A stretch of 64,000 bases of DNA from Candidatus Omnitrophota bacterium (GCA_903860135.1 CAIOPG010000016.1:2674-66673), one strand, 5' to 3'; positions 2,999-24,562 are shown, counted from the first letter of the stretch. Translations and numbers: made by a program. Notes: generated by a model from the letters alone, not told the origin.

Positions 2999-3712
2999 TC
3001 ATAATTCCCCTAAATCAGGGAAGCTCTCAACCTTTCTAGGCAAGCTTTCTAATAAACTTGCCACTGGAGAGGGTGAAAGATAATTGTATTTCTTTAGGAG
3101 ATATATCATCTCCATTAATGGTCCTAGTAAAGTCATCCCGCAGGTCAACTTTGAACTAGTGCTTGTAATCAGTTCACCTAGCAAGTCATTAAAATATAAA
3201 ACCTTCATATCTCCAAACAAATCAATCTTGCTGAATTCGCTGTGAGATATTTCCTTTTTACTGCTAAAAATAACAGTCTTAGAAAATACATCTTTCCTTT
3301 TTATTGCATAGAATAGAGCATGCGAGTGGGGAGGCTCACCTATTGTTTCATAAGTATAATCTGGACTATTGCGCAAGTCATCCCTCTGACAACAATCTAA
3401 ATACACATGATATTGCCCACCTTGATCAATGGCTAAAAGTTGATTATCGACACCAATCAATGCAGGCTCGCGATAAAGCTCATACGGTGCATTCTCAATA
3501 ATATGCTGCTCTCTTGTAAAACTAATCCATAATTTGATTAATTCACGATATGTTGATCCAAATATATCGTCGTAATTCATTTTCTTATCAATATTAATAC
3601 TGCTAAATTTATCGTGCTGCATATATACATTTCTTCTGCTGCTAGATTTCATAATTTTCCTTTCGTTAGAGTTCATACAGCTCAATATCAATATCATCCT
3701 TAGTTGAAACAT
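2999..3712 (-). CDS. hypothetical protein (element cargo, AT-rich)
   Basis: 237-aa ORF at the extreme left end of the insert. No recognisable motif. The real start may be the internal MKSSSRRN. Confidence 0.4.
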   Translation of the reverse strand: MFQLRMILILSCMNSNERKIMKSSSRRNVYMQHDKFSSINIDKKMNYDDIFGSTYRELIKLWISFTREQHIIENAPYELYREPALIGVDNQLLAIDQGGQYHVYLDCCQRDDLRNSPDYTYETIGEPPHSHALFYAIKRKDVFSKTVIFSSKKEISHSEFSKIDLFGDMKVLYFNDLLGELITSTSSKLTCGMTLLGPLMEMIYLLKKYNYLSPSPVASLLESLPRKVESFPDLGEL

Positions 3713-5141
3713 GAATCACTTTGACTAACTCGGTCAGAATCTCCCGCTGCGTTCGTGGTGTTAGCTTGAGAAAGGCTCCCTTCAAGTCCTTAACCCGGCG
3801 TAGCAAGGTTACACGCTTATCACGAGCCTTAGGATTAACATCAAGGATAAGTCGCTCCCTTAATGTCTGTAACTTCTCTAAGTCTTTGGCGATGTTATCC
3901 ATTCGCTCCACCAACAAGTCTTTAGAGATTGCTCCATCCTCAAACAGCTCGAGTAACTTCTTCTGCTTGCCCAGCATCTTGTTCAGATTTCTTTCCACTC
4001 CTTTCAACTCCTCTGCCGGTTTATCCTGCTTCAATCGTTCCAATACCTTCTCAGCATCGTGCTCATCAAAATGAAGGTTCGCATACTGCTGAATCTTTTC
4101 TAGAACGACCTTCTCCAAGTTCTGCTTATTGATAGAGACTCCTAAACATACATTTGGCCCTTTGCTTATGTGGTTATGACATCGGTAATAGCTAAAGGAT
4201 TTCCCGTTCTGCTTACTCGTACACTGACCACAAAGAGATCCGCCGCACTCAGTACACCGCATCAGACCTGATAGAAGATAAAACTCTCCTGAACGATGCT
4301 GTTTTATGTAGCGTCGTTGCTTTACTAGAGCCTGAACTCTCTCATACTGCTCCTCGGTGATAATCGGAGTGAAATCACCCTTCCTCACAGTCCATTTATC
4401 CTTAGGCAAGTAAACCTTTGAACCACCGGCTCGCTTCCCGTAGGTGTAGTACCCCATGTAAGGTGGGCTTGTCAGCACTCTTCTCACGGTTGTTGCCGCC
4501 CAAGTCTGTCCTCGCTTGGTTGTGTACGCCTTCTTATTCATCCAATGCGTCAGGCCCCTAAGCGTTCGGATTTCCTCAAACTTGGTGTACATTGCTCTTA
4601 CGACTTTAGCCTCAGCACCATTAATCACTAACCCCTTATCCTTAACGTCGTAGCCATATGGTGGCTGCCCTCCACAGAAATCACCACGATCTGCCTTGTG
4701 ATACATCGCATCTTTTACACGTTCAACTGTGATCGACCGCTCCCATTCGGCCAAACTACCCAAGATCGTCAACATCAACCTACCCGTGGGCGAAGTCGTG
4801 TCTAAATTTTCACTTAGCGATATAAAGCTAACGTCGTGCTTACTAAGAAGGTCTACGAAATCCAGCAAGTCCCTAACATTCCGCGCCACCCTGTCAAACT
4901 TGTAAACGACGACAGTCCCAACAGAACCATCCGCAATCCGTGCTAGAAGTTGGCTAAAAGCAGGCCTATTGATACTCGCGGCGGAGTAACCGTTATCAAC
5001 AAAGTGTTCTGCTCGAGTGAGGTTCTTTCTTGCTACTTCCTGCTCGAGCCACTCCTTCTGCCGAGGCACAGACAGCCCTTTATCACGTTGGATGTCTGTC
5101 GACACCCTAGAGTACAGAGCTGTGACCTTAGATGTCATCAC
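3666..5141 (-). CDS. large serine recombinase (candidate integrase of the element)
   Basis: N-terminal resolvase catalytic domain (LYSRVSTDIQRDKGLSVPRQ). Recombinase domain. Cys-rich zinc-ribbon segment (CTECGGSLCGQC...YYRCHNH). C-terminal coiled coil. 491 aa. Confidence 0.9.
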   Translation of the reverse strand: MMTSKVTALYSRVSTDIQRDKGLSVPRQKEWLEQEVARKNLTRAEHFVDNGYSAASINRPAFSQLLARIADGSVGTVVVYKFDRVARNVRDLLDFVDLLSKHDVSFISLSENLDTTSPTGRLMLTILGSLAEWERSITVERVKDAMYHKADRGDFCGGQPPYGYDVKDKGLVINGAEAKVVRAMYTKFEEIRTLRGLTHWMNKKAYTTKRGQTWAATTVRRVLTSPPYMGYYTYGKRAGGSKVYLPKDKWTVRKGDFTPIITEEQYERVQALVKQRRYIKQHRSGEFYLLSGLMRCTECGGSLCGQCTSKQNGKSFSYYRCHNHISKGPNVCLGVSINKQNLEKVVLEKIQQYANLHFDEHDAEKVLERLKQDKPAEELKGVERNLNKMLGKQKKLLELFEDGAISKDLLVERMDNIAKDLEKLQTLRERLILDVNPKARDKRVTLLRRVKDLKGAFLKLTPRTQREILTELVKVIHVSTKDDIDIELYEL

Positions 5142-5280: not shown

Positions 5281-7368
5281 TCACACCTTATCAAGATTAA
5301 CGTCAACCTCATACTGCTGCTCCGTTGTGGGATTGCCACCATCTTCATCAAAGTACTGCTCGAAGAATTTGTTACCCTTAACAGTCTTGCGACATCCTTT
5401 GGCTGTTCGCACAATGAGCCCATGCTTGAAAAGAATCTCCATGCTGGCTCTTATTGGTTTATCACCAACGCTTAATGACTTCTCAAGCGTCTCTTGCTTA
5501 ACAAATTCATGTGATAAAACAGCCTTGAGAACCTGCATCATTGTTCCTTTATAATTTTCATCAACTTTCCTCGACTTAATATCGGCAGTAATGCGTTTAT
5601 AATCATCAAGGTCTAAATTTTCATTGATGTGCATCGCTGACACATACTTATCAAATCGGCAATTGTCATGATCGTAAACTTGTTGCAACTTCTTAACTAG
5701 AAACAGGACATGACCCTGCTTAACAACAATCTTTTCATGACTCTCATCGGTTGAATGCAACAACGCTGCAAGGCCTACCGACATCCTGGCCAATTTCTCA
5801 TGAATATCAGTCAGCACTAATGGGATTGTCGGATCTTCATACTTGTTGAGCATTAGATCTGATTGGCGCAGAATCTCGTTAGTAGCCTCCTTTTCGAATA
5901 CGACATCATTAATCCCCTTCCGCCACGCCCATAAAATACTTTGCTGAAGAAGCTTAGGCGTTATGGACTGATGAACTTTCTCACGTTCCTCATCCAACAT
6001 GAGAATGACCTTTCTAGGGACATCCCCCCGTCGGACACAAATAACGACATCTAATCGCCTAATATCCGCCGGTCGCTGATAATTAATAGCTGTTATCGGG
6101 TATTGAAAGTTATCCATTGGCTCTCCACTAACAGGATTCGCCAAGAATACATACCGAACTCTACATGGATGCTCAGCTTTAACTGACTTCGTGACAATCA
6201 TTACGCCACTTGATCTTGCGCTGCTAAATTCTTCCATCTCTTCGGACTTAAACTTCTGAGCTTCGTCGACAACTACAGCTTTCTTATCATTCAATGGCCC
6301 AACGCCCCATGTAATTATTCGCTGATTGTTTATCACAGTATCGAGGCTGTAACCTAATCCTGTTCGTGATGATGCACTTCCACTTGTCATTTGGCCAATA
6401 CCAATACCCCGAACAAGTCGCTCCACTAATGTTGATTTTCCCTGTGCAGTATCGCCCATCACCATCATTTCACCCCAACCCTTAGTCTTCGCTCCGTTAA
6501 ACTTAAACTGAAGCACGGTGTGAAAAGTAATCAGCACAAATAGCAGAATATTTACGCGGCACTCACCATAAATCTTGGTGATGTTCGCAGTAACGTCTTT
6601 AAGTGTTCTATTCACTGCGATTTCTATCAACTCTGGACTATCATGGACCGCTCGAAATTTCTTAAACTCTGACTTGATGCTATCCGTTGTTTCCTGTGCA
6701 TCAATATCTGTCCTAAGTGGTTCGACTGCTTGAACAAATAAAGTTGCAGCCTGTGTCTTGGGATGTGGTACAACTACGCCGGTAAGACGAAAATGCCCGT
6801 CAGTCTTTATCAAGTTCCCAGCTAGGTAAACAATCTTCTGTCTATAGTCCCGGCCCTTCTCATCAACTAATTCGCCATTATCCCCTTCATTAATAACCTG
6901 TGCCTGAGGTACTACAACCAGTTCTTGCACGGCTGTATACGCCACAAGCCGTATCGACAATCGGCAATCTTCACTAACTTGAGCCTGTAACGACTTCTTG
7001 ATAATCCGCTCCACCTGATCAGAATCTTTTCGACAGAGCGTCAGTATCGTTGGGTCTGTCGCTTCAAATCGAATAGATGAACCTTTTCGATAGCTACAAT
7101 TGCCACACGCGGATCTGTTCTTATCAACGAACGCACACTCCACTGCAAACTGCACCGGCACTTGAAAGCTTTCCACTGCGGCAGTAATCCTTACATCAAC
7201 CTGAACTCGTTTATTGACATACTCTGACTTCTCAATATCAGTCAAATGCACAGCAACTGGTGGAATGCTTTCGTCAATTTGTATAGCTCTACTCGGATGA
7301 GTACTACATTCAACAACCCTCTTCTTAGACATTAGGATTTCCCTTTCTTTTCTTTGGTTTAATCCCAA
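5281..7368 (-). CDS. MCM-like AAA+ ATPase / putative replicative helicase of the element
   Basis: Walker A MMVMGDTAQGKSTL resembles MCM GDPGxAKSQ. Walker B VVVDEAQKF. N-terminal CxxC pair (SACGNCSY). C-terminal winged-helix-like tail. 695 aa. Confidence 0.5.
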   Translation of the reverse strand: MGLNQRKEREILMSKKRVVECSTHPSRAIQIDESIPPVAVHLTDIEKSEYVNKRVQVDVRITAAVESFQVPVQFAVECAFVDKNRSACGNCSYRKGSSIRFEATDPTILTLCRKDSDQVERIIKKSLQAQVSEDCRLSIRLVAYTAVQELVVVPQAQVINEGDNGELVDEKGRDYRQKIVYLAGNLIKTDGHFRLTGVVVPHPKTQAATLFVQAVEPLRTDIDAQETTDSIKSEFKKFRAVHDSPELIEIAVNRTLKDVTANITKIYGECRVNILLFVLITFHTVLQFKFNGAKTKGWGEMMVMGDTAQGKSTLVERLVRGIGIGQMTSGSASSRTGLGYSLDTVINNQRIITWGVGPLNDKKAVVVDEAQKFKSEEMEEFSSARSSGVMIVTKSVKAEHPCRVRYVFLANPVSGEPMDNFQYPITAINYQRPADIRRLDVVICVRRGDVPRKVILMLDEEREKVHQSITPKLLQQSILWAWRKGINDVVFEKEATNEILRQSDLMLNKYEDPTIPLVLTDIHEKLARMSVGLAALLHSTDESHEKIVVKQGHVLFLVKKLQQVYDHDNCRFDKYVSAMHINENLDLDDYKRITADIKSRKVDENYKGTMMQVLKAVLSHEFVKQETLEKSLSVGDKPIRASMEILFKHGLIVRTAKGCRKTVKGNKFFEQYFDEDGGNPTTEQQYEVDVNLDKV

Positions 7369-7909
7369 ATGCCAACATAATTGCTTTTGAGAATCGTTCC
7401 CTTTTTTCAGGAGTGAGATTGCTCAACTCATTCATCGGATCATTAACAAAGAAATAATAATATGTTCCCCAATAAATCAAACACTGTTTAATACAGGTCA
7501 AACATGTGGCATTCTTTACATCCATCCTTAATTCCTTCTTACATTCACTGCACATCAAACTTGACCGAATCACAAGTTGGGTTTTTACGCATTTATTACA
7601 CAGCCAGACACCTTTTTGCTGTATTAAATCTTTCCTACTAAAAAGTTTCGTCTCAGAATCCTCAAGATTGATGTTCAGTGTATTTATTCTCATAGCAACT
7701 GCTCGATTAGTTAGACAATCTGACCCACACTTAAGACACTGACAACGCTTTACATAGAGATTGCTGTTACCCTTAACTGAAAGATTACACAATTTCCCCA
7801 TAAGCGTTTGATCATCATCAATAATATGTGTGTTACTAACTTCCTTCATAAACTCAGAGTCCACAACTCTTCCCATATCACCATGTCTACTTCGTATTTC
7901 TATTACCAT
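7325..7909 (-). CDS. Cys-rich (multi CxxC) zinc-finger-like protein
   Basis: CQCLKCGSDC, CNKC, CSECKK, CLTCIKQC. No homology recognised. Confidence 0.45.
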   Translation of the reverse strand: MVIEIRSRHGDMGRVVDSEFMKEVSNTHIIDDDQTLMGKLCNLSVKGNSNLYVKRCQCLKCGSDCLTNRAVAMRINTLNINLEDSETKLFSRKDLIQQKGVWLCNKCVKTQLVIRSSLMCSECKKELRMDVKNATCLTCIKQCLIYWGTYYYFFVNDPMNELSNLTPEKRERFSKAIMLAFGIKPKKRKGNPNV

Positions 7910-7963
7910 TTCTCCTCCTAATTGTTACCGTTCTTCTATTCATTATTTCTATAAACTTAATTC

Positions 7964-8326
7964 TCAACCATGTACCATTTCGAATTGCAATGCTTTACGT
8001 TTCTTGGCATTGAAATACTCAGCAAATTCAACATTCAATCTCAATGCACGTTTCATTTGGCATACACAACCACTGCCATCACATACATCAGGTTTAAGCT
8101 GACACTCCAAACAGGCCACCTTATCCATATGCTTTACGAACTGTTCAATGCACGCCCTACATATCCAGGATCTCTTGGGGTAACCTTTAATAGATATTCC
8201 TTCCACAAGTTCTTCAATGTCATTACACAAACAACAAATATCACCAGCTCCAGCGTACTTTCGTCTCTTGCCATACAAATTAAAGAATTCATCGACTGTT
8301 ATTGGCTTTCTAACTGATTTATTCAT
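7964..8326 (-). CDS. Cys-rich zinc-finger-like small protein
   Basis: CCLCND, CRAC, CLEC, CDGSGCVC. Confidence 0.45.
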   Translation of the reverse strand: MNKSVRKPITVDEFFNLYGKRRKYAGAGDICCLCNDIEELVEGISIKGYPKRSWICRACIEQFVKHMDKVACLECQLKPDVCDGSGCVCQMKRALRLNVEFAEYFNAKKRKALQFEMVHG

Positions 8327-8652
8327 ATTCCCCTCTTTCCTTTGCCCACTGTTCTTATATCCATACTCATATTTAATCCGTCATCTCTTGTCAGAAGTAA
8401 GCTAACACTCGATCTAAGCCCGGCCAAAGAAGCAAACGCCTCTAATCTCTCACTAATTTCAACTATCTCTTTTGCAGCAGCACAGTCACTTCGTTGCCGT
8501 AGGTTACATTTGCCATACAACCCCTCAAAAGTTAACCTTCCACTGCTACCTGAACAATAACAATGGTCACATTTAAAACCCATTAGCGAACCTTGACCTT
8601 GCCCATCCTTAACTACTAGCCCATCTACCTTCCTGCTCATATTGCTCTTCAT
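8323..8652 (-). CDS. Cys-containing small protein
   Basis: CDHCYCSGSSG ... CNLRQRSDC. Start overlaps the upstream gene by 4 nt (coupled). Confidence 0.4.
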   Translation of the reverse strand: MKSNMSRKVDGLVVKDGQGQGSLMGFKCDHCYCSGSSGRLTFEGLYGKCNLRQRSDCAAAKEIVEISERLEAFASLAGLRSSVSLLLTRDDGLNMSMDIRTVGKGKRGI

Positions 8653-8701
8653 ACACGTTCCTTTCTTTATTCCACACTGTGGAATGTTCGGTTAAAAAAT
8701 T

Positions 8702-9259
8702 TTACTGGGCGATCAACTCGGACATCTTGTTAAAATATTCTTTAAAATCCAACACTCTCTTGCGAAAATCAGACCATATTTCAGCCTGCTTCTTCCGAAG
8801 CTCCAAAAATTCTTTCTTAGCTTGTTTCTTGGAATTAGAGTCAAATTTATCTTTAGAGAACTCAAATTCACCTGTAGGCCCCATCATCCATGACATAAGC
8901 TGTAAATTAAGGTTAATAATATCTTCTCCCTCCTCCTCATCCAGATCGAACTCAACCTGTGCAAAATTAAATATCTTAACCTCCAGATCACAAAATTCCT
9001 TTAACTCAGATAATGGGATGTGTGCCGTACGAAGTAACAGAATCATTCTAAAGAATTCAACTTCTGCGGATGTATAACTACTCTTTGCCCCGTGCGCACC
9101 ACTTGCCCCGGTTGCCAGTTTCCTGCGAGAAGATGAACGCCGCAAATTTAAAGCATCTTCCATCTTCCAAAGCCAAGCACTGGAAACTCCAACTCTTTGG
9201 CAAACTTCTTGTCCTGTGAAATCATTATCTTCTTTTGACATGAGCAAAGTATTCCACAC
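8702..9259 (-). CDS. helix-turn-helix (MerR/excisionase-like) DNA-binding protein
   Basis: N-terminal FTGQEVCQRVGVSSAWLWKMED resembles MerR-type/AlpA HTH. Acidic coiled-coil C-terminus. Immediately downstream of the second recombinase. Confidence 0.5.
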   Translation of the reverse strand: MWNTLLMSKEDNDFTGQEVCQRVGVSSAWLWKMEDALNLRRSSSRRKLATGASGAHGAKSSYTSAEVEFFRMILLLRTAHIPLSELKEFCDLEVKIFNFAQVEFDLDEEEGEDIINLNLQLMSWMMGPTGEFEFSKDKFDSNSKKQAKKEFLELRKKQAEIWSDFRKRVLDFKEYFNKMSELIAQ

Positions 9260-9282
9260 TGGGGAATAAAAGTCAAGGAAAA

Positions 9283-10155
9283 TTATTTTGCTCTATGTCC
9301 AACAAGATTATTTTCAGACACGTGAGGTATCGCGTGTCTAGCCACAATACACCTCTGAACCTTATCGAATACTTTCTCGTCGATAATCTTTTCAACTGCG
9401 CCGGGCTTCTCGATACAATCGCCACCCCATCCTCTAGCCTTAACCTTTCTAAATCCCCATCGGGCTGCACCCTTATAAACCGGGTTGGTCAGAATTCTCT
9501 GTACCTTTTTGCTCGAAAATAATTTTCCGTATGAACTTTTTACGCCTACCTTATTTAGCACCGTTGCCACAGCCGTCATGTTCTTGCGCTTAAGAAATTC
9601 TCGAAAGATCTGCTCCACTATCGGCTTAGTATTGTCATCAATAATCAGACGCTTGCCTTCCACTTTATAGCCAAGTGGTGGCCGCCCTCCCAAAAACTGC
9701 CCGGTCAAAGATGCCATTGCATTCCTACATCTAATACCTCCAGAGGTGGCCTCATACTCACCAAACACGCCCAAGACTGAGAACAGCACCCTTCCTCCCG
9801 GGCTCTTGGTATCAATCAGCTCAACGACTGACTCGAGGCCAACACCACAGCGGCGAAACTCATAGTCCAAATTCAGCAGATCCCTAACATTGCGAGAAAT
9901 TCGATCGAACCGCCAAGTCAGCACAACATTAAAGTCTGCCTTCTCCTTCATATCTTGAAGCAACTGCGCCAAAGCCGGGCGACGTATAGGCGGAAGCGTA
10001 CCAGAATAAGCCTCATCAGTATAAACCCGGACCAACGTTCCACCTTGGGCTGTGATGTAAGCCTCACACCGAGCTCTCATCGCCGATAAACTACAACCAT
10101 CCTCTACCTGAGAATTGCTACTTACACGCAGATAAACTACGAAAGCCTTGCTCAC
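9283..10155 (-). CDS. serine recombinase (resolvase/invertase-size) second recombinase
   Basis: VVYLRVSSNSQ catalytic serine region. DRISRNVRDLL motif shared with the large recombinase (DRVARNVRDLL). 290 aa. Confidence 0.85.
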   Translation of the reverse strand: MSKAFVVYLRVSSNSQVEDGCSLSAMRARCEAYITAQGGTLVRVYTDEAYSGTLPPIRRPALAQLLQDMKEKADFNVVLTWRFDRISRNVRDLLNLDYEFRRCGVGLESVVELIDTKSPGGRVLFSVLGVFGEYEATSGGIRCRNAMASLTGQFLGGRPPLGYKVEGKRLIIDDNTKPIVEQIFREFLKRKNMTAVATVLNKVGVKSSYGKLFSSKKVQRILTNPVYKGAARWGFRKVKARGWGGDCIEKPGAVEKIIDEKVFDKVQRCIVARHAIPHVSENNLVGHRAK

Positions 10156-12954: not shown

Positions 12955-15003
12955 ATGACATCAACTACTAATCCTCAACAAATAATCAACCTATCAATTC
13001 ACGGTGATAATATCGTTGAGTGCGAACGCGCTTGGGCATTAATCAAAGATGCGTTCAATTGCCACTCAAGCACACCTTCAATTATCCCCGATTCAATTAT
13101 TGCCCCTAACTTTGAAGCATCCTCTCAAGAATATAATATTCAACTTCGTGCAGTATTTCTCCCTGGGTTTAACCGATGGAGTCCAGATATTCTAGCCCAT
13201 ATTAAGAATCGCGGCGCTATGTTACGTGAGGCTGCCGATGCTATTATTTGCCTAAATCTAACATCTAAAGATAATCAACCCATTCAAATCCCGTTGTTAG
13301 CAATCGAATTCTGTGGAGCCTTAGCTGCAGGGAATCAAGCTTGGCAACGCTGCGGTCGAGCATTAGCTTTTTCGGCAGCTAAGATTCCTTATATTTATTT
13401 AGCAGAACTAGGCGGATTTGAGTTAGATGAAGATAGAAATATAAAAGCTGTACGATTGCCTAACCCATTAATCCCATTTGCTTATCTAACATTATCATTC
13501 CAATCCGATACATTCGCATTACCCGTTTTCATTCCAAATGCGGCAGCAGATAAAACAGCCTTGACCAACTTTCATAATTGTTTTGGTTTACCTAATTTGC
13601 TCGAGCTAATTCGCCACGCTATCTTAAACACAAACCCATCCTCCTCAGCCAATGCTTTAACAGCTAAAACACTCGCACTCGTTAATATTCTATCGGACAA
13701 TCGAAAGCAAAAAGTTAAGAATACCTTTACTCCTCCACTATGGGAAGAATGGCTTAAAACAATCCATAATGATCAGACTGCTGCTACTTACATTGCACAA
13801 CAAGCACTTAGTTGGGGAAAAACAGCATATATAGCCGGACTAACTCAAACCACAAAGAATGTTATCAACTCCGCGCCGAAATATGCGATTGGCGCCGGAG
13901 CATCTCAAGTCCCAATCTGTGTAGTTCCCGCAAGCCAACGCGTCAATTTTGCTAACTTTATCATCACGCAATATCCAAAGTTAACACCTCAATTTCGTAA
14001 TTGGCTTAAAGAAGACCGGCCTCTTGGTATTTGCTGGGTAATGGGATTCAAACCTCGAGGGGATGACGCTCGACCTGATCGTGGACTTCCCCCTCTAGCT
14101 CGTATGATATTTGGACCCAAGACTGATCTCTTAACATTTGTCTATGGACCTGCCAAACCATTCTCCTGGCCCTTATTGCACAATAAACCACAACAATTAG
14201 CTAATCAAAATGGGCTTTGGGAAGCAATCTTAGCAATGAGCGATGCAATATTGGTAGACAGCATTACGGATAAAAATATTACAGATAAAGGCTACCTTCG
14301 CAGCCACTGGCATAAGGCTCAATCACCAATACCTCCATCTCCACTCCCGGTTAGTGTTATCACTCCAACATCACTCGGAGAGAATGATGTTGACACCGTA
14401 ATACACCTCCTAATGACTTCCAATAAAGAAATAGTATTCGAAGGTATGTGCAACCCGCCCGGCGGAGATTGGAGTGGTATTTCAATTAAGGATAGTGCTA
14501 ATAATGTAACTCTGGAGAAGCGTTGGCTTTCCCTGCCAAGGGTTAGCGCACAACAACACAAAAGACCAGACCATGTCTTTCAAATATTCTTTCCGAATAA
14601 GCTTCCGATTATTCTCTCAGTTGAATCTAAGGAGAAATCATCTGACGTCGAGCCAAATATCGGCGAAAGACTTTCTGGCTACATTCAACAGCTTATGAAA
14701 GTTCCATCCTCCGTAGAACGAGAGTTCCCCAAAGGAGCTTGGAAGGTATCAGTCGATAAAATTGATCTAAAGAAATTTAGATTCGCATCAGCTGTGGCAT
14801 TCTTATCAGATAGTAATAATGAATTAGAAATTGCCAAAAAGAAATCTCAAGCAGATTTGATAATTGGAATAACGATATCAGCTAACGGAAAAGATGCGGA
14901 ATTGAAACTGCTTGCAGGATCACCTATTGGAACAGAATTGCTCACATCAATTCATTCCTTAACAAAAATATCAAGACTACCTATAAAAGCCTCAATAATT
15001 TAA
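12955..15003 (+). CDS. large uncharacterised protein, candidate restriction endonuclease of a two-methyltransferase R-M module
   Basis: 682 aa. Convergent with, and 12 nt overlapping, the Dam-family methyltransferase gene. C-terminal half has a PD...ESK arrangement (RPDHVFQIF...ILSVESKEK) compatible with a PD-(D/E)xK nuclease. No methyltransferase motifs. Confidence 0.45.
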   Translation: MTSTTNPQQIINLSIHGDNIVECERAWALIKDAFNCHSSTPSIIPDSIIAPNFEASSQEYNIQLRAVFLPGFNRWSPDILAHIKNRGAMLREAADAIICLNLTSKDNQPIQIPLLAIEFCGALAAGNQAWQRCGRALAFSAAKIPYIYLAELGGFELDEDRNIKAVRLPNPLIPFAYLTLSFQSDTFALPVFIPNAAADKTALTNFHNCFGLPNLLELIRHAILNTNPSSSANALTAKTLALVNILSDNRKQKVKNTFTPPLWEEWLKTIHNDQTAATYIAQQALSWGKTAYIAGLTQTTKNVINSAPKYAIGAGASQVPICVVPASQRVNFANFIITQYPKLTPQFRNWLKEDRPLGICWVMGFKPRGDDARPDRGLPPLARMIFGPKTDLLTFVYGPAKPFSWPLLHNKPQQLANQNGLWEAILAMSDAILVDSITDKNITDKGYLRSHWHKAQSPIPPSPLPVSVITPTSLGENDVDTVIHLLMTSNKEIVFEGMCNPPGGDWSGISIKDSANNVTLEKRWLSLPRVSAQQHKRPDHVFQIFFPNKLPIILSVESKEKSSDVEPNIGERLSGYIQQLMKVPSSVEREFPKGAWKVSVDKIDLKKFRFASAVAFLSDSNNELEIAKKKSQADLIIGITISANGKDAELKLLAGSPIGTELLTSIHSLTKISRLPIKASII

Positions 15004-15810
15004 ATACAAAGACTCCTCCACCATATTCTTCGTCTTATCTATTACTTTTCTGAAACTCGAATAACCTGAGCGCAAAAGAAAATGCCTCTTATATAATGAT
15101 TTCGGAATTTCTACAGAATAATCTTTCTCCGTACTCTTCCCATCGAACGACAATGCGTATTTTATCTTCTTCTTATTTAAACGATTCAATTCATCAAGAA
15201 ACTCACTAAAATTAATTGTGCCATAATATCGCCCCTTTGTATAAAAATATGGCGGATCTAAATATACAAAATCTCCAGTTTCAACTCTCGCCAAAGTCTT
15301 TCTATAATCACCGACACAAAAGTCAACTGGCTTCACAACCTCTTGCCACTCTACTAGAATTCCCGCCAATCTTTCAGGCTGGATGCCTCTTCTTGTATGA
15401 TGTAATGAATTGTTAAACTCCCCATTCTTATTAAATCTAATAAGCCCATTCACGCATGTCCTAGAAAGAAAGAAGAGATCATATGGACTATGTGTTTCAT
15501 TAAACCGATTACGAACATCATAAAAGACTAAATGACCGTCGGCCTTCAATCTATTCCACTCCTTCTGATAATAAGTCAACAAACTATCTGGAGAATCTTG
15601 AACGACTTTCCATAAATCAATAAGCGGCTTACAAATATCACTGCAAACAGCAATCTTAGGTCGAAGATATGAAATTATAGATCCCCCACCAATAAATGGC
15701 TCGTAATAGCACCCTAAATCCTGAGGGAACTTACTCACTATCTCTTTAGCTTGACTTCGTTTACTACCTGTCCATTTAATGATTGGCATCAATGAATTTC
15801 CAAGTCTCAT
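14992..15810 (-). CDS. Dam-family (alpha-class) N6-adenine DNA methyltransferase, DpnM-like
   Basis: IIKWTGSKR (the KWAGGK-type motif of the Dam family). Motif I EPFIGGGS precedes motif IV TGDFVYLDPPY. Confidence 0.85.
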   Translation of the reverse strand: MRLGNSLMPIIKWTGSKRSQAKEIVSKFPQDLGCYYEPFIGGGSIISYLRPKIAVCSDICKPLIDLWKVVQDSPDSLLTYYQKEWNRLKADGHLVFYDVRNRFNETHSPYDLFFLSRTCVNGLIRFNKNGEFNNSLHHTRRGIQPERLAGILVEWQEVVKPVDFCVGDYRKTLARVETGDFVYLDPPYFYTKGRYYGTINFSEFLDELNRLNKKKIKYALSFDGKSTEKDYSVEIPKSLYKRHFLLRSGYSSFRKVIDKTKNMVEESLYLNY

Positions 15811-16640
15811 CGTGATTCATCCCCTTTTACAAAAAGGTCAGGCTCGGTAAATTCAACCCTTTCTTTCGCGAGTTTAATATATTCCTCACTTATTTCAAAT
15901 GCAATATATCGACGATCCAACATTTTTGCGGCTACACATTCTGTTCCAGACCCACAAAATGGAATCAAACAAACATCTCCCGGCTTACTCGCAATAGAAA
16001 TAATTCTATCTGCTATTCTAATAGGCTTCTGAGTTGGATGAGAACCATACTTCCGTTCAACTTTCGTCTTATTATTGGGAATATCCCAGACGGTTCTCAT
16101 CTGCTTCCCCTTCTTCTTCAACAAGTCTTCAGCAAAATCACCATTCTTAGTATACGGATAATTAAAGAAATACTTTCGCTTCCCTTTACCATAATGGCCC
16201 CATAACAACGTTTCATGACTTGCAGTCAAACGCCGCCCTGACAAATTGGGGAATGAATTCCTTTTATACCAAACAACCTCATTAATAATTTCAATTCCTA
16301 GAAGTTGAAATACGAAGTTTATAACTCCAATATTATGATATGTTCCATATACCCAAATAGAGCCTGTAGGCTTCAACAATCGCTTTGCTTCAGTCAACCA
16401 AGCTAGAGTGAAATTAAAATATTCACTTAGCCCCATACAGTCCCAATCTTCCATCACTTTATTCCAAACGCCACCCATGCCCTTCAACTCAACACTTTTA
16501 TCCCATCCCCACTTATTGCCTTTCGACAAATTATATGGTGGATCAGCAATAATTAAGTCGATTGAGGAATCTGGCAAGGCCTTCATCCCGTCGACACAAT
16601 CCTGATGTATTATTGAATTTAGAGATTTTTCTATCTGCAT
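15807..16640 (-). CDS. beta-class N6A/N4C DNA methyltransferase, DpnA-like
   Basis: DLIIADPPYN near the N-terminus and SHPTQKP...IPFCGSGTECVAAKMLDRRYIAFEISEEY near the C-terminus (D12-class order, collinear with DpnA). ATGA overlap with the Dam-family gene. Confidence 0.85.
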   Translation of the reverse strand: MQIEKSLNSIIHQDCVDGMKALPDSSIDLIIADPPYNLSKGNKWGWDKSVELKGMGGVWNKVMEDWDCMGLSEYFNFTLAWLTEAKRLLKPTGSIWVYGTYHNIGVINFVFQLLGIEIINEVVWYKRNSFPNLSGRRLTASHETLLWGHYGKGKRKYFFNYPYTKNGDFAEDLLKKKGKQMRTVWDIPNNKTKVERKYGSHPTQKPIRIADRIISIASKPGDVCLIPFCGSGTECVAAKMLDRRYIAFEISEEYIKLAKERVEFTEPDLFVKGDESR

Positions 16641-16758: not shown

Positions 16759-17247
16759 GTGATGAATCCCTGCCCATGCGGCCACCTGGGCGACCGCAAC
16801 AAAGCCTGCCGCTGCAGCAGCGCGCAGATCCAGCGCTACCAGATAAAGATCTCGGGCCCCTTGCTTGACCGCATCGATATTCATCTGGATGTCCCGGCCC
16901 TCAAGACTGATGACCTGTTGAATGCGCCTTCGGGCGAATCGTCCGAAACGATCCGGGCGCGTGTCCTGACAGCGCGTGAACGCCAGCTGGAACGTTTTAA
17001 AGGCGAGGACGTTTTTGCCAACACCCAGATGTCACACCGCCACATCCGCAAACACTGTGCCCTGGATAAAGCCGCGCAAAAACTGCTGAAAGATGCGGTA
17101 GAAACCCTAGGGATCTCGGCCCGCGCCCACGACAAGATCCTGCGCCTGGCCCGCACGATCGCCGACATCGACGGGGCTGACACGATCAACACAGGACATC
17201 TCTCTGAAGCTATCGGGTACAGGACGCTGGACAGGACAAGCACATGA
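16759..17247 (+). pseudogene. comM: comM/yifB 3' portion (C-terminal domain) separated from its 5' part by the insertion
   Basis: MNPCPCGHLGD...LLDRIDIHLDV... matches the ComM/YifB C-terminus. Continues exactly where 1902..2984 breaks off. Confidence 0.85.
16762..16779. repeat. right junction repeat ATGAATCCCTGCCCATGC (candidate attR core)
   Basis: Second copy of the MNPCPC-coding 18-mer, 2 mismatches to the left copy. The comM reading frame resumes here. Confidence 0.6.
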
Positions 17248-17867
17248 TCCAGCTACAGAAAACATTTACATCACATACGAAAAGAAACCGTGTGACATCC
17301 AAAACAACACTTATCCTCACAGAAAGAATTCAACAACGCATATTCTTTGTCCGTAACAAGAAAATCATGCTGGACAAAGACCTCGCTCTTTTGTACGACG
17401 TTGAAACCCGCACACTCAACCAGGCCGTTAAACGTAATGCCCGAAGATTCCCCGAAGATTTCATGTTCCAATTGACTAAGAAAGAATTAACTGAGGTTAT
17501 CACAAACTGTGATAACCTCCCGGATCTAAAGTTCAACCCGTCCCGTCCATACGCTTTTACAGAACACGGCATCCTTATGCTCTCCAGCGTCCTTAACAGC
17601 GAAAAAGCTATCGAAGTTAACATCCAGATCATGCGGACATTCACACAACTGCGGGCGCTGATGGCAACACACAAAGACCTTCAACTCAAGATCACGGCGT
17701 TAGAAAAGCAGTACAACCGGCAATTCAAAATCGTCTTTGAAGCCATCAGAAAACTCATAGAACCGTCTTTAGCACCACAAAGACAAAAACTACCGATCGG
17801 ATTTCATGCAAGGGCGACAGAGGAAACCCCCTCTCACCCCTTGGGCTGTTGCAGAAGGCAGAAATGA
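17244..17867 (+). CDS. ORF6N domain-containing protein
   Basis: IFFVRNKKIMLDKDLALLYDVETRTLNQAVKRNARRFPEDFMFQLT is the ORF6N signature. Overlaps the comM stop by 4 nt. Confidence 0.7.
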   Translation: MIQLQKTFTSHTKRNRVTSKTTLILTERIQQRIFFVRNKKIMLDKDLALLYDVETRTLNQAVKRNARRFPEDFMFQLTKKELTEVITNCDNLPDLKFNPSRPYAFTEHGILMLSSVLNSEKAIEVNIQIMRTFTQLRALMATHKDLQLKITALEKQYNRQFKIVFEAIRKLIEPSLAPQRQKLPIGFHARATEETPSHPLGCCRRQK

Positions 17868-24431: not shown

Positions 24432-24503
24432 GTCCCCTTAGCTTAACGGATAAAGCACAAGCCTCCGAAGCTTGGGATGAGGGTTCGATTCCCCCAGGGG
24501 GCG
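24432..24503 (+). tRNA. tRNA-Arg (anticodon CCG)
   Basis: Acceptor stem GTCCCCT/AGGGGGC. D-stem GCTT/AAGC. Anticodon stem CAAGC/GCTTG with loop CTCCGAA. T-loop GGTTCGATTCC. Followed by a T-run. Confidence 0.85.
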
Positions 24504-24562
24504 CTTTTTTCATCCACTTTGTTTCTTCTTCCAAAATATAAATGTAACGCCATCGACGATCC

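Follow-up and report, generated by a model that had tools for sequence, protein, structure and literature searches.

A primase-less MCM-family helicase gene and three coupled cysteine-rich orphan genes in a putative cryptic element interrupting comM of a Candidatus Omnitrophota bacterium

Nearly all MCM helicases known from bacterial mobile elements are primase-helicase fusions, and a gene for such a helicase that stands without its primase raises the question of what, if anything, has taken the primase's place. That question is posed by 64,000 nucleotides of a Candidatus Omnitrophota bacterium (GCA_903860135.1, CAIOPG010000016.1:2674-66673), here called the window and considered at full length, in which positions 5281-8652 hold a gene for an MCM-like helicase and three small cysteine-rich open reading frames (ORFs). 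An earlier reading of the same DNA, referred to below as the original prediction, described these four ORFs as a candidate replication module. On balance, if only narrowly, it is probable that they form the replication and regulation operon of a cryptic integrative element of 13.8 kb (also called the island below) that splits the host gene comM.

The helicase and its missing primase

The helicase gene lies on the minus strand and encodes a beta-rich N-terminal domain, an AAA+ core and, probably, a winged helix at the C-terminus, with no primase domain. Translation from ATG 7332 (5281-7332) gives 683 amino acids, the likelier form and the one used by public gene calls (P0001), and translation from TTG 7368 (5281-7368) gives the 695 amino acids of the original prediction; residue numbers here follow the 683-residue form. 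The Pfam profile of the MCM P-loop domain (PF00493) matches residues 263-442 at 33.4 bits against a cutoff of 23.3, phrog_18685 matches at 3.9e-80, and all matches below E = 0.4 in a sequence search of the PDB are MCM2-8 subunits. In the PDB alignments GDTAQGKS falls on the Walker A motif of MCM, VVVDE on its Walker B, ANP on its sensor 1, and IRRLD on its arginine finger (SRFD), so that the MCM-type Walker A (MVMGDTAQGKST) and the hhhhDE Walker B noted earlier are both present and align to MCM motifs. Across an alignment of 18 homologs, G293-D-T-A-Q-G-K299-S, D356-E357, A-N399-P and D423-I-R-R426-L-D428 vary little or not at all and align to the motifs of MCM7 and MCM5, and four N-terminal cysteines (C66, C76, C79 and C123), which include the CxxC pair already described, are invariant.

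An AlphaFold2 model built on the same alignment (pLDDT 81, pTM 0.72) has a beta-rich N-domain (residues 42-205, pLDDT ~80), an AAA+ core and, at residues 592-649, a helix-helix-helix-strand-strand arrangement that agrees with the winged-helix-like tail predicted at first; Pfam RuvB_C matches this tail at E = 9e-4 and 19.5 bits, below its threshold of 24.7. The best 50 PDB matches of the model in Foldseek are all MCM2-7 or archaeal MCM chains (E ~1e-24, with 550-700 columns aligned against full-length MCMs). Judged by profile, motifs, predicted fold and homology to BcMCM, which all agree, the protein is a genuine MCM-family AAA+ helicase, of the hexameric type by family, with all ATPase motifs intact. 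The same four kinds of evidence exclude a protease or McrB-type ATPase, and the profile searches proposed earlier as a check placed the protein with MCM and in no non-helicase ATPase family.

The relatives of this protein are found in phages and mobile elements. Searches with tblastn returned 51 phage records, including Bacillus phage vB_BboS-125 and 36 Microbacterium phages annotated with a 'DNA primase/helicase', and ~340 IMG/VR viral contigs encode relatives. Against Bacillus phage phBC6A51, in which the matching protein is annotated as an 'MCM domain family protein', identity is 31.5% over residues 135-656 (E = 1e-59). This prophage is the source of BcMCM, for which activity as helicase, primase and polymerase has been demonstrated, with the primase-polymerase in residues 1-400 (PMC2715239, PMC3273815); hexamer formation and 3'-5' helicase activity have also been demonstrated (PMC3273815). 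MCM genes have been described on bacterial integrated elements before, including 'cryptic' ones without phage or conjugation genes (PMC5862659). By homology the helicase belongs to the phage and mobile-element MCM clade that includes BcMCM, and in itself it appears ordinary. It has in common with the BcMCM/phrog_18685 family the homologous MCM part with Walker A and B, sensor 1, arginine finger and four N-terminal cysteines, probably also the winged helix, as well as its coding on a mobile element. It differs in lacking a fused primase of either the AEP or the DnaG type, and in its setting, a small integrative element without phage structural genes in a diderm host. The likeness to archaeal and eukaryotic MCM (MCM2-7, SsoMCM) extends to the fold, an above-threshold Pfam P-loop match, a Walker A of GDxxxxKS type and an arginine finger at the SRFD position; however, identity is ~15%, the Walker A of the window protein is a canonical GKS, and the protein is not a cellular replicative helicase.

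Within its family, the window protein stands out by having no primase. Sequence is available for 82 relatives, 77 of them complete and five cut by contig ends. An N-terminal extension of 160-490 amino acids (median 350) is present in 77/77 complete relatives, and in nearly all it includes a fused primase, either of AEP type (PF01896, or PF22548, AEP-TOTE, together with a PriL-like region) or of DnaG type (zf-CHC2 plus Toprim); the five relatives without an extension are the genes cut at contig ends. The window MCM, although complete, starts exactly at the MCM N-domain and has no N-terminal extension. Its closest subclade is rare, with two further members found, P0002 (47% identity) and P0003 (45%), and a search of genomes, metagenomes and viral contigs for sister elements of these three returned only the known JGI contig. 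The subclade forms a gradient, from a full AEP-TOTE domain in P0003, through an AEP tail and linker in P0002, to nothing in the window MCM. P0002 (locus L003, 1-300) keeps just the last part of the AEP domain, which lies behind a stop codon, and the catalytic part is lost. Since the end of the AEP domain is all that P0002 retains, this rare subclade has lost the catalytic domain of its primase either repeatedly or in steps.

A remnant of the primase was sought with phmmer, using the 77 extensions, and with AEP-type and DnaG-type profile hidden Markov models (HMMs) against the six-frame translation of the island, and nothing significant was found; the best hit in these searches, to the DnaG-type N-terminal HMM at E = 0.31, is a coincidence of cysteine pairs. 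The small ORFs were also considered as a frameshifted or decayed primase, and this was rejected, as BLASTP (17 homologs), phmmer, profile HMMs and tblastn with the N-terminus of P0003 were all nonsignificant. Pfam, PADLOC and NCBIfam detect no known type of primase in the element, and a Toprim domain occurs nowhere in the island.

Three cysteine-rich genes in front of the helicase gene

Where relatives encode a primase, the window has three small genes, orf109, orf120 and orf194, transcribed in that order and followed by the MCM gene. Their sizes of 109, 120 and 194 amino acids, their positions and the shared strand are as first described. Because all four ORFs are on the minus strand, however, the cysteine-rich genes lie 5' of the helicase gene, and their original placement 'immediately downstream' of it was wrong. 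The overlapping or coupled starts claimed for them are real, with an ATGA overlap shared by orf109 (8323-8652) and orf120 (7964-8326) and an 8-nucleotide overlap between the stop of orf194 (7325-7909) and the MCM start. The 54 nucleotides between orf120 and orf194 contain AGGAGG 5 nucleotides upstream of orf194, and one Shine-Dalgarno-like site precedes each of the four genes (AAGGAA for orf109, GAGGGG, AGGAGG for orf194, and AAGGGA).

The cysteines of these proteins are clustered, and all motifs quoted in the original prediction (CQCLKCGSDC, CCLCND, CDGSGCVC and CDHCYC) are found. The 12 cysteines of orf194 fall into C56xC58xxC61xxxC65, C104xxC107, C120xxC123 and C136xxC139xxxC143, with a ribbon CLKC…GVWLCNKC; the 10 of orf120 fall into C31CxC34, C56xxC59, C72xxC75 and C82x4C87xC89, with a ribbon CCLC…SWICRAC; and orf109 has five, C28xxC31xC33, C49 and C57. 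Cysteine makes up 6.4% of the three proteins, whereas base composition would predict 3.3% (P = 0.001) and the other island proteins have 1.8%, and CxxC motifs number eight in the three small ORFs against three in the 3074 residues of the other island proteins. Together the three ORFs fill 1269 of 1328 nucleotides. None of 5000 shuffled sequences contained three ORFs of at least 100 amino acids, and only 0.7% contained even one. A purine stands at codon position 1 in 0.63-0.70 of codons in the small ORFs, as in identified island genes, compared with 0.43-0.50 in antisense ORFs. Given the Shine-Dalgarno-like sites, the coupled starts, the gene-like codon bias and the outcome of the shuffles, the small cysteine-rich ORFs look like real genes.

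Two of the three may be related to each other. The Smith-Waterman score of orf194 against orf120 is 57, compared with 31.5 ± 5.4 for shuffles, of which 1/2000 reached it, and the two share the register W[LI]CxxC-x12-CxEC and the order of four cysteine clusters; they look like diverged tandem paralogs, weakly similar, with two putative zinc sites each. The sequence of orf109 is unrelated to either. Searches of Pfam, PHROGs, PADLOC, NCBIfam and PDB with the small ORFs gave nonsignificant zinc-finger-type matches only, and the DnaG-type zf-CHC2 domain (PF01807) has no Pfam match among them. The HMM of the primase zinc-binding domain (ZBD) scores 3.0 against orf194, a value reached by 19/1000 shuffles, and leaves orf120 unscored. 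Zinc proteins of Ogr/Delta or HNH type were rejected as candidates, there being no Pfam match and, for HNH, none of the histidines.

Small cysteine-rich genes recur in the corresponding position of related phages. In several phage loci with a DnaG-type primase-MCM, such a gene ends at the MCM start codon, and cysteine-rich small genes are modestly enriched in this slot (7/37 against 78/1158, p = 0.013). The signature CxxC-x(8-45)-WxCxxC occurs in 18 of 8077 ORFs, against ~2.7 expected, and after removal of antisense artefacts and duplicates six of ~11 carriers stand directly 5' of a primase-MCM gene. Both orf194 and orf120 contain this signature, which is absent from orf109. Seven of the phage proteins, here termed the A3 family, combine a CopG-type ribbon-helix-helix (RHH) domain with a C-terminal zinc ribbon, PxxC[PL]xCG…GxWxCxxCxSSG, and are encoded directly 5' of a DnaG-type primase-MCM (L033, 654-965; L055, 6604-6996; L061, 6448-7032; L067, 6213-6587; L072, 6658-7005; L076, 6536-7012; L077, 6694-7023). 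Their genes end -21 to +12 nucleotides from the MCM start, except that of L067, which is one gene further upstream, at -436. The family is uncharacterised and has no PHROG annotation, and RHH_1 matches three of the seven members. The A3 ribbon aligns with the zf-CHC2 zinc-binding domain of the adjacent primase at an hhalign probability of 93% (E = 4e-7).

The window proteins share with A3 the slot and strand before MCM and the CxxC…WxCxxC ribbon signature. In hhalign, orf194 against A3 scores 30.3 (P = 7e-4), a value reached by none of 100 composition-matched shuffles, and orf120 against A3 has P = 8e-3, reached by one of 100 such shuffles; in both cases the correct ribbon columns are aligned. 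Two further kinds of protein occupy the same slot before primase-MCM genes. A second, unrelated family of ~100 amino acids with 8-9 cysteines overlaps the primase-MCM start (L030, 6809-7108; L032, 6751-7062; L070, 6802-7086), and a DnaJ-like CxxCxGxG zinc-finger protein is encoded at L054, 6375-6695. The slot ahead of this helicase gene seems to be a favoured place for genes of small zinc proteins.

The integrated element and its setting

The four genes lie in a block of low GC content (0.39-0.45, compared with ~0.52 around it) that interrupts the host gene comM/yifB, which encodes a Mg-chelatase-like competence ATPase. The 5' part of comM is an ORF at 1902-2984 that stops at profile position 350/499, and the 3' part lies at 16759-17247 (Mg_chelatase_C, 2e-34), the interruption falling within the codons for the conserved MNPCPCG motif. 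Both junctions have 18-bp imperfect direct repeats in common, which are taken as att sites: the left repeat, ATGAACCCCTGCCCGTGC, closes the 5' part at 2955-2972, and the right repeat, ATGAATCCCTGCCCATGC, opens the 3' part at 16762-16779 and is identical to the left at 16/18 positions. We infer that excision at these repeats would restore an intact comM. No phage structural genes or conjugation genes are present in the 13.8 kb so delimited, which also hold several further orphan genes.

Two serine recombinases are encoded on the minus strand on either side of the four genes. The larger, of 491 amino acids (3666-5141), lies 3' of the MCM gene and is transcribed in the same direction; with Resolvase, Recombinase and Zn_ribbon_recom domains and a match to the phrog_95 integrase at 8e-123, it is the probable integrase. 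The smaller, of 290 amino acids (9283-10155), matches Pfam Resolvase and Recombinase, has no zinc ribbon and is a probable resolvase. With the recombinase that precedes the AEP-MCM gene in the closest related element, L002 (4748-5629), it shares 46% identity (E = 8e-76). A recombinase of ~290 amino acids without a zinc-ribbon or coiled-coil domain is thus kept just 5' of MCM in two otherwise unlike elements, one of which uses a tyrosine integrase for integration. This suggests a resolvase dedicated to the replication module.

Between the smaller recombinase gene and orf109, on the same strand, lies an orphan gene of 179 codons, orf179 (8702-9241). It has a weak N-terminal helix-turn-helix signal, Pfam HTH_31 at E = 0.031 over residues 9-38 of a 185-residue ORF starting at GTG 9259, equivalent to about residues 3-32 of orf179, and its own entry alone was returned by a large-database search. 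A perfect 7-1-7 palindrome, TTCCACAGTGTGGAA, lies between the stop of orf179 and the start of orf109 (8670-8684) as an operator-like site, and a second copy, TTCCCCAGTGTGGAA, lies just 5' of orf179 (9252-9266), so that the two copies flank this gene. The 15-bp pattern TTCC(A/C)CAGTGTGGAA has two sites in the 64 kb at <=2 mismatches, against 0.15 expected. The palindromes are probably operators of the replication operon, and orf179 is a candidate for its regulator.

The remaining identified genes of the element form a restriction-modification cargo at 12955-16640. A Type II restriction enzyme gene on the plus strand (12955-15003; PADLOC REase_II, 7e-131) is convergent with two minus-strand genes for DNA methyltransferases of unlike class assigned by Pfam, one of the D12 class (N6-adenine; 14992-15810) and one of the N6_N4 class (15807-16640). 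Systems with an asymmetric recognition site typically combine a restriction enzyme with methyltransferases of two classes in this layout.

Outside the element, at 17244-17867, lies an ORF6N-domain gene (KilA-N/antirepressor-like; Pfam 2.6e-30) whose start is 4 nucleotides ahead of the comM 3' stop; another mobile element may have left it behind, or it may be the usual neighbour after comM in this host. A tRNA-Arg(CCG) gene lies at 24432-24504, and genes for BamD, MacB and Uup in the window mark the host as a diderm bacterium. All 2-kb bins have a negative GC skew (cumulative -4.8) and the minus strand carries most of the long ORFs, so that the whole 64-kb window appears to lie on one replichore with its genes co-oriented.

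A replication module, with or without partners

As the four genes lie inside a discrete 13.8-kb integrated element together with recombinases, it is plausible that they are its replication module. That much of the original prediction stands, although it overlooked the primase that relatives carry fused and that is absent here. In the mechanism proposed, the large serine recombinase would excise the element at the 18-bp att repeats and restore comM, the MCM helicase would unwind the circular form for replication, the 290-residue recombinase would resolve multimers, and orf179, acting at the palindromes, would control the operon. The three orphan proteins would bind zinc and be co-produced with the helicase, and at least those of orf194 and orf120 would act as DNA-recognition or helicase-partner subunits, for example in origin or template recognition or in recruitment of a host primase. 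In such a partner role these two would stand in for some of the functions of the lost primase module, and priming would be left to host DnaG or another activity.

SCCmec offers a comparison for this arrangement: it too is integrated site-specifically and has neither phage nor conjugation genes, and its two serine recombinases are encoded by an MCM-like helicase gene that small partner genes precede, a partner role that in the window is only inferred. SCCmec encodes the MCM-like helicase Cch or Cch2, the small partners MP or LP1413, and the serine recombinases CcrAB (PMC7581432, PMC5862659), and in its CCPol-MP-Cch2 system the small upstream protein MP confers primase activity on CCPol (PMC7581432). 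The window, however, has no DUF927/Cch match and no homolog of CCPol, MP or LP1413 in Pfam or NCBIfam, and its target is comM, not rlmH; by this comparison the resemblance is organisational and not one of homology. A bolder extension of the analogy would make the three zinc-ribbon proteins a stand-alone substitute for the lost primase module, that is, free template- or origin-recognition subunits, similar to a primase ZBD, that load or partner MCM and then either recruit host DnaG or form with the helicase a new kind of priming activity, as MP does with CCPol. This extension is improbable. The small proteins may be the zinc-ribbon primase or loader accessory proteins guessed at earlier; their likeness to the zinc-ribbon proteins that precede primase-MCM genes elsewhere is at motif level and statistically weak.

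Several observations weigh against a replication operon with dedicated zinc-ribbon partners, beginning with the small genes themselves. A full HMMER scan of 1.84e9 representative proteins found no homolog of orf194, no homolog of orf120 was found among 5.8e9 clustered proteins, and none of any small ORF in phage and plasmid tblastn searches, a viral scan or all ORFs of 83 related loci. All three are singleton clusters from one sample (for orf109, a 90%-identity cluster); in a large-database query made with orf109 and orf179 concatenated, the entry of orf109 itself did not come back. The original prediction was to be refuted if the cysteine-rich ORFs were conserved nowhere, and at the sequence level no conservation, the usual mark of function, was found. 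The single-sequence AlphaFold2 model of orf194 is uninformative (pLDDT 33). The link of orf194 and orf120 to the A3 proteins is suggestive, and the two were kept out of that family because hhalign probabilities are just 5-37%, HMMER scores lie close to those of shuffles or among them (reached by 13/1000 shuffles for orf120 and 852/1000 for orf194), and no RHH domain is matched by Pfam at E <= 0.1 in orf194, orf120 or orf109; the window proteins also lack the xSSG tail after the ribbon and have extra cysteine clusters. At the level of the element, no convincing tandem repeats resembling origin iterons were found, and the element is carried by one sample only (run ERR4195066). Lacking a primase, the element may be unable to replicate autonomously, and it could be in decay.

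The orphan status of the small genes also suits the view that the helicase replicates the element and the cysteine-rich genes are unrelated accessory genes (regulators, anti-defence genes or 'morons') brought in by the DNA that took the place of the primase-coding 5' part. Their GC content at third codon positions (0.33-0.35) is lower than that of the MCM gene (0.41) and the recombinases (0.47-0.52) and similar to that of the restriction-modification cargo; L002 has no counterpart of them, just one unrelated 102-residue ORF; and cysteine-rich ORFs make up ~7% of small phage genes in any case. Such an origin would nevertheless sit uneasily with the tight translational coupling of the small genes to the helicase, with their place within an operator-controlled operon, and with the ribbon signature by which orf194 and orf120 match proteins in the same slot of other primase-MCM loci. 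It is unlikely without being far-fetched.

A further alternative would see in the MCM gene the leftover of a 5'-truncated primase-helicase in a decaying, non-replicating element whose small ORFs are young or non-functional. The window MCM is indeed the sole complete family member without an extension, its sister P0002 is 5'-truncated too, the small ORFs are orphans, and a detectable origin is absent. Decay would, however, have had to spare the ATPase motifs and four zinc-type cysteines of a 683-residue ORF, both recombinases, the restriction-modification genes and the att repeats, and to leave three long ORFs with Shine-Dalgarno-like sites and gene-like codon bias of a kind seen in 0/5000 shuffles, which makes this account very improbable. 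Less probable still is a role of the MCM-type ATPase in conflict or defence, with the adjacent restriction-modification genes or in a TOTE-like manner: the closest fused relative does have the Pfam 'TOTE conflict system' AEP domain and the element does carry a restriction-modification system, but PADLOC matches neither the helicase nor its neighbours, the family is a core gene of ~340 phage contigs and annotated as primase/helicase in cultured phages, BcMCM has been shown biochemically to be a replicative-type enzyme, and the restriction-modification genes form a separate block several kb from MCM with their own transcription units.

If the small genes are unrelated to the helicase, or if the element is decaying, the locus would be just another cryptic restriction-modification island integrated in comM. 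What is unusual about it as a replication operon is not the helicase but the replacement, a motif-intact MCM without a primase and, instead of the latter, three orphan zinc-ribbon genes coupled to the helicase gene. Zinc-ribbon proteins that recur before phage primase-MCM genes and resemble a primase ZBD may represent an unrecognised and possibly general accessory component of these systems, and the primase-less arrangement of the window would amount to a natural experiment on whether helicases of this kind draw on host priming or on separate small partners.

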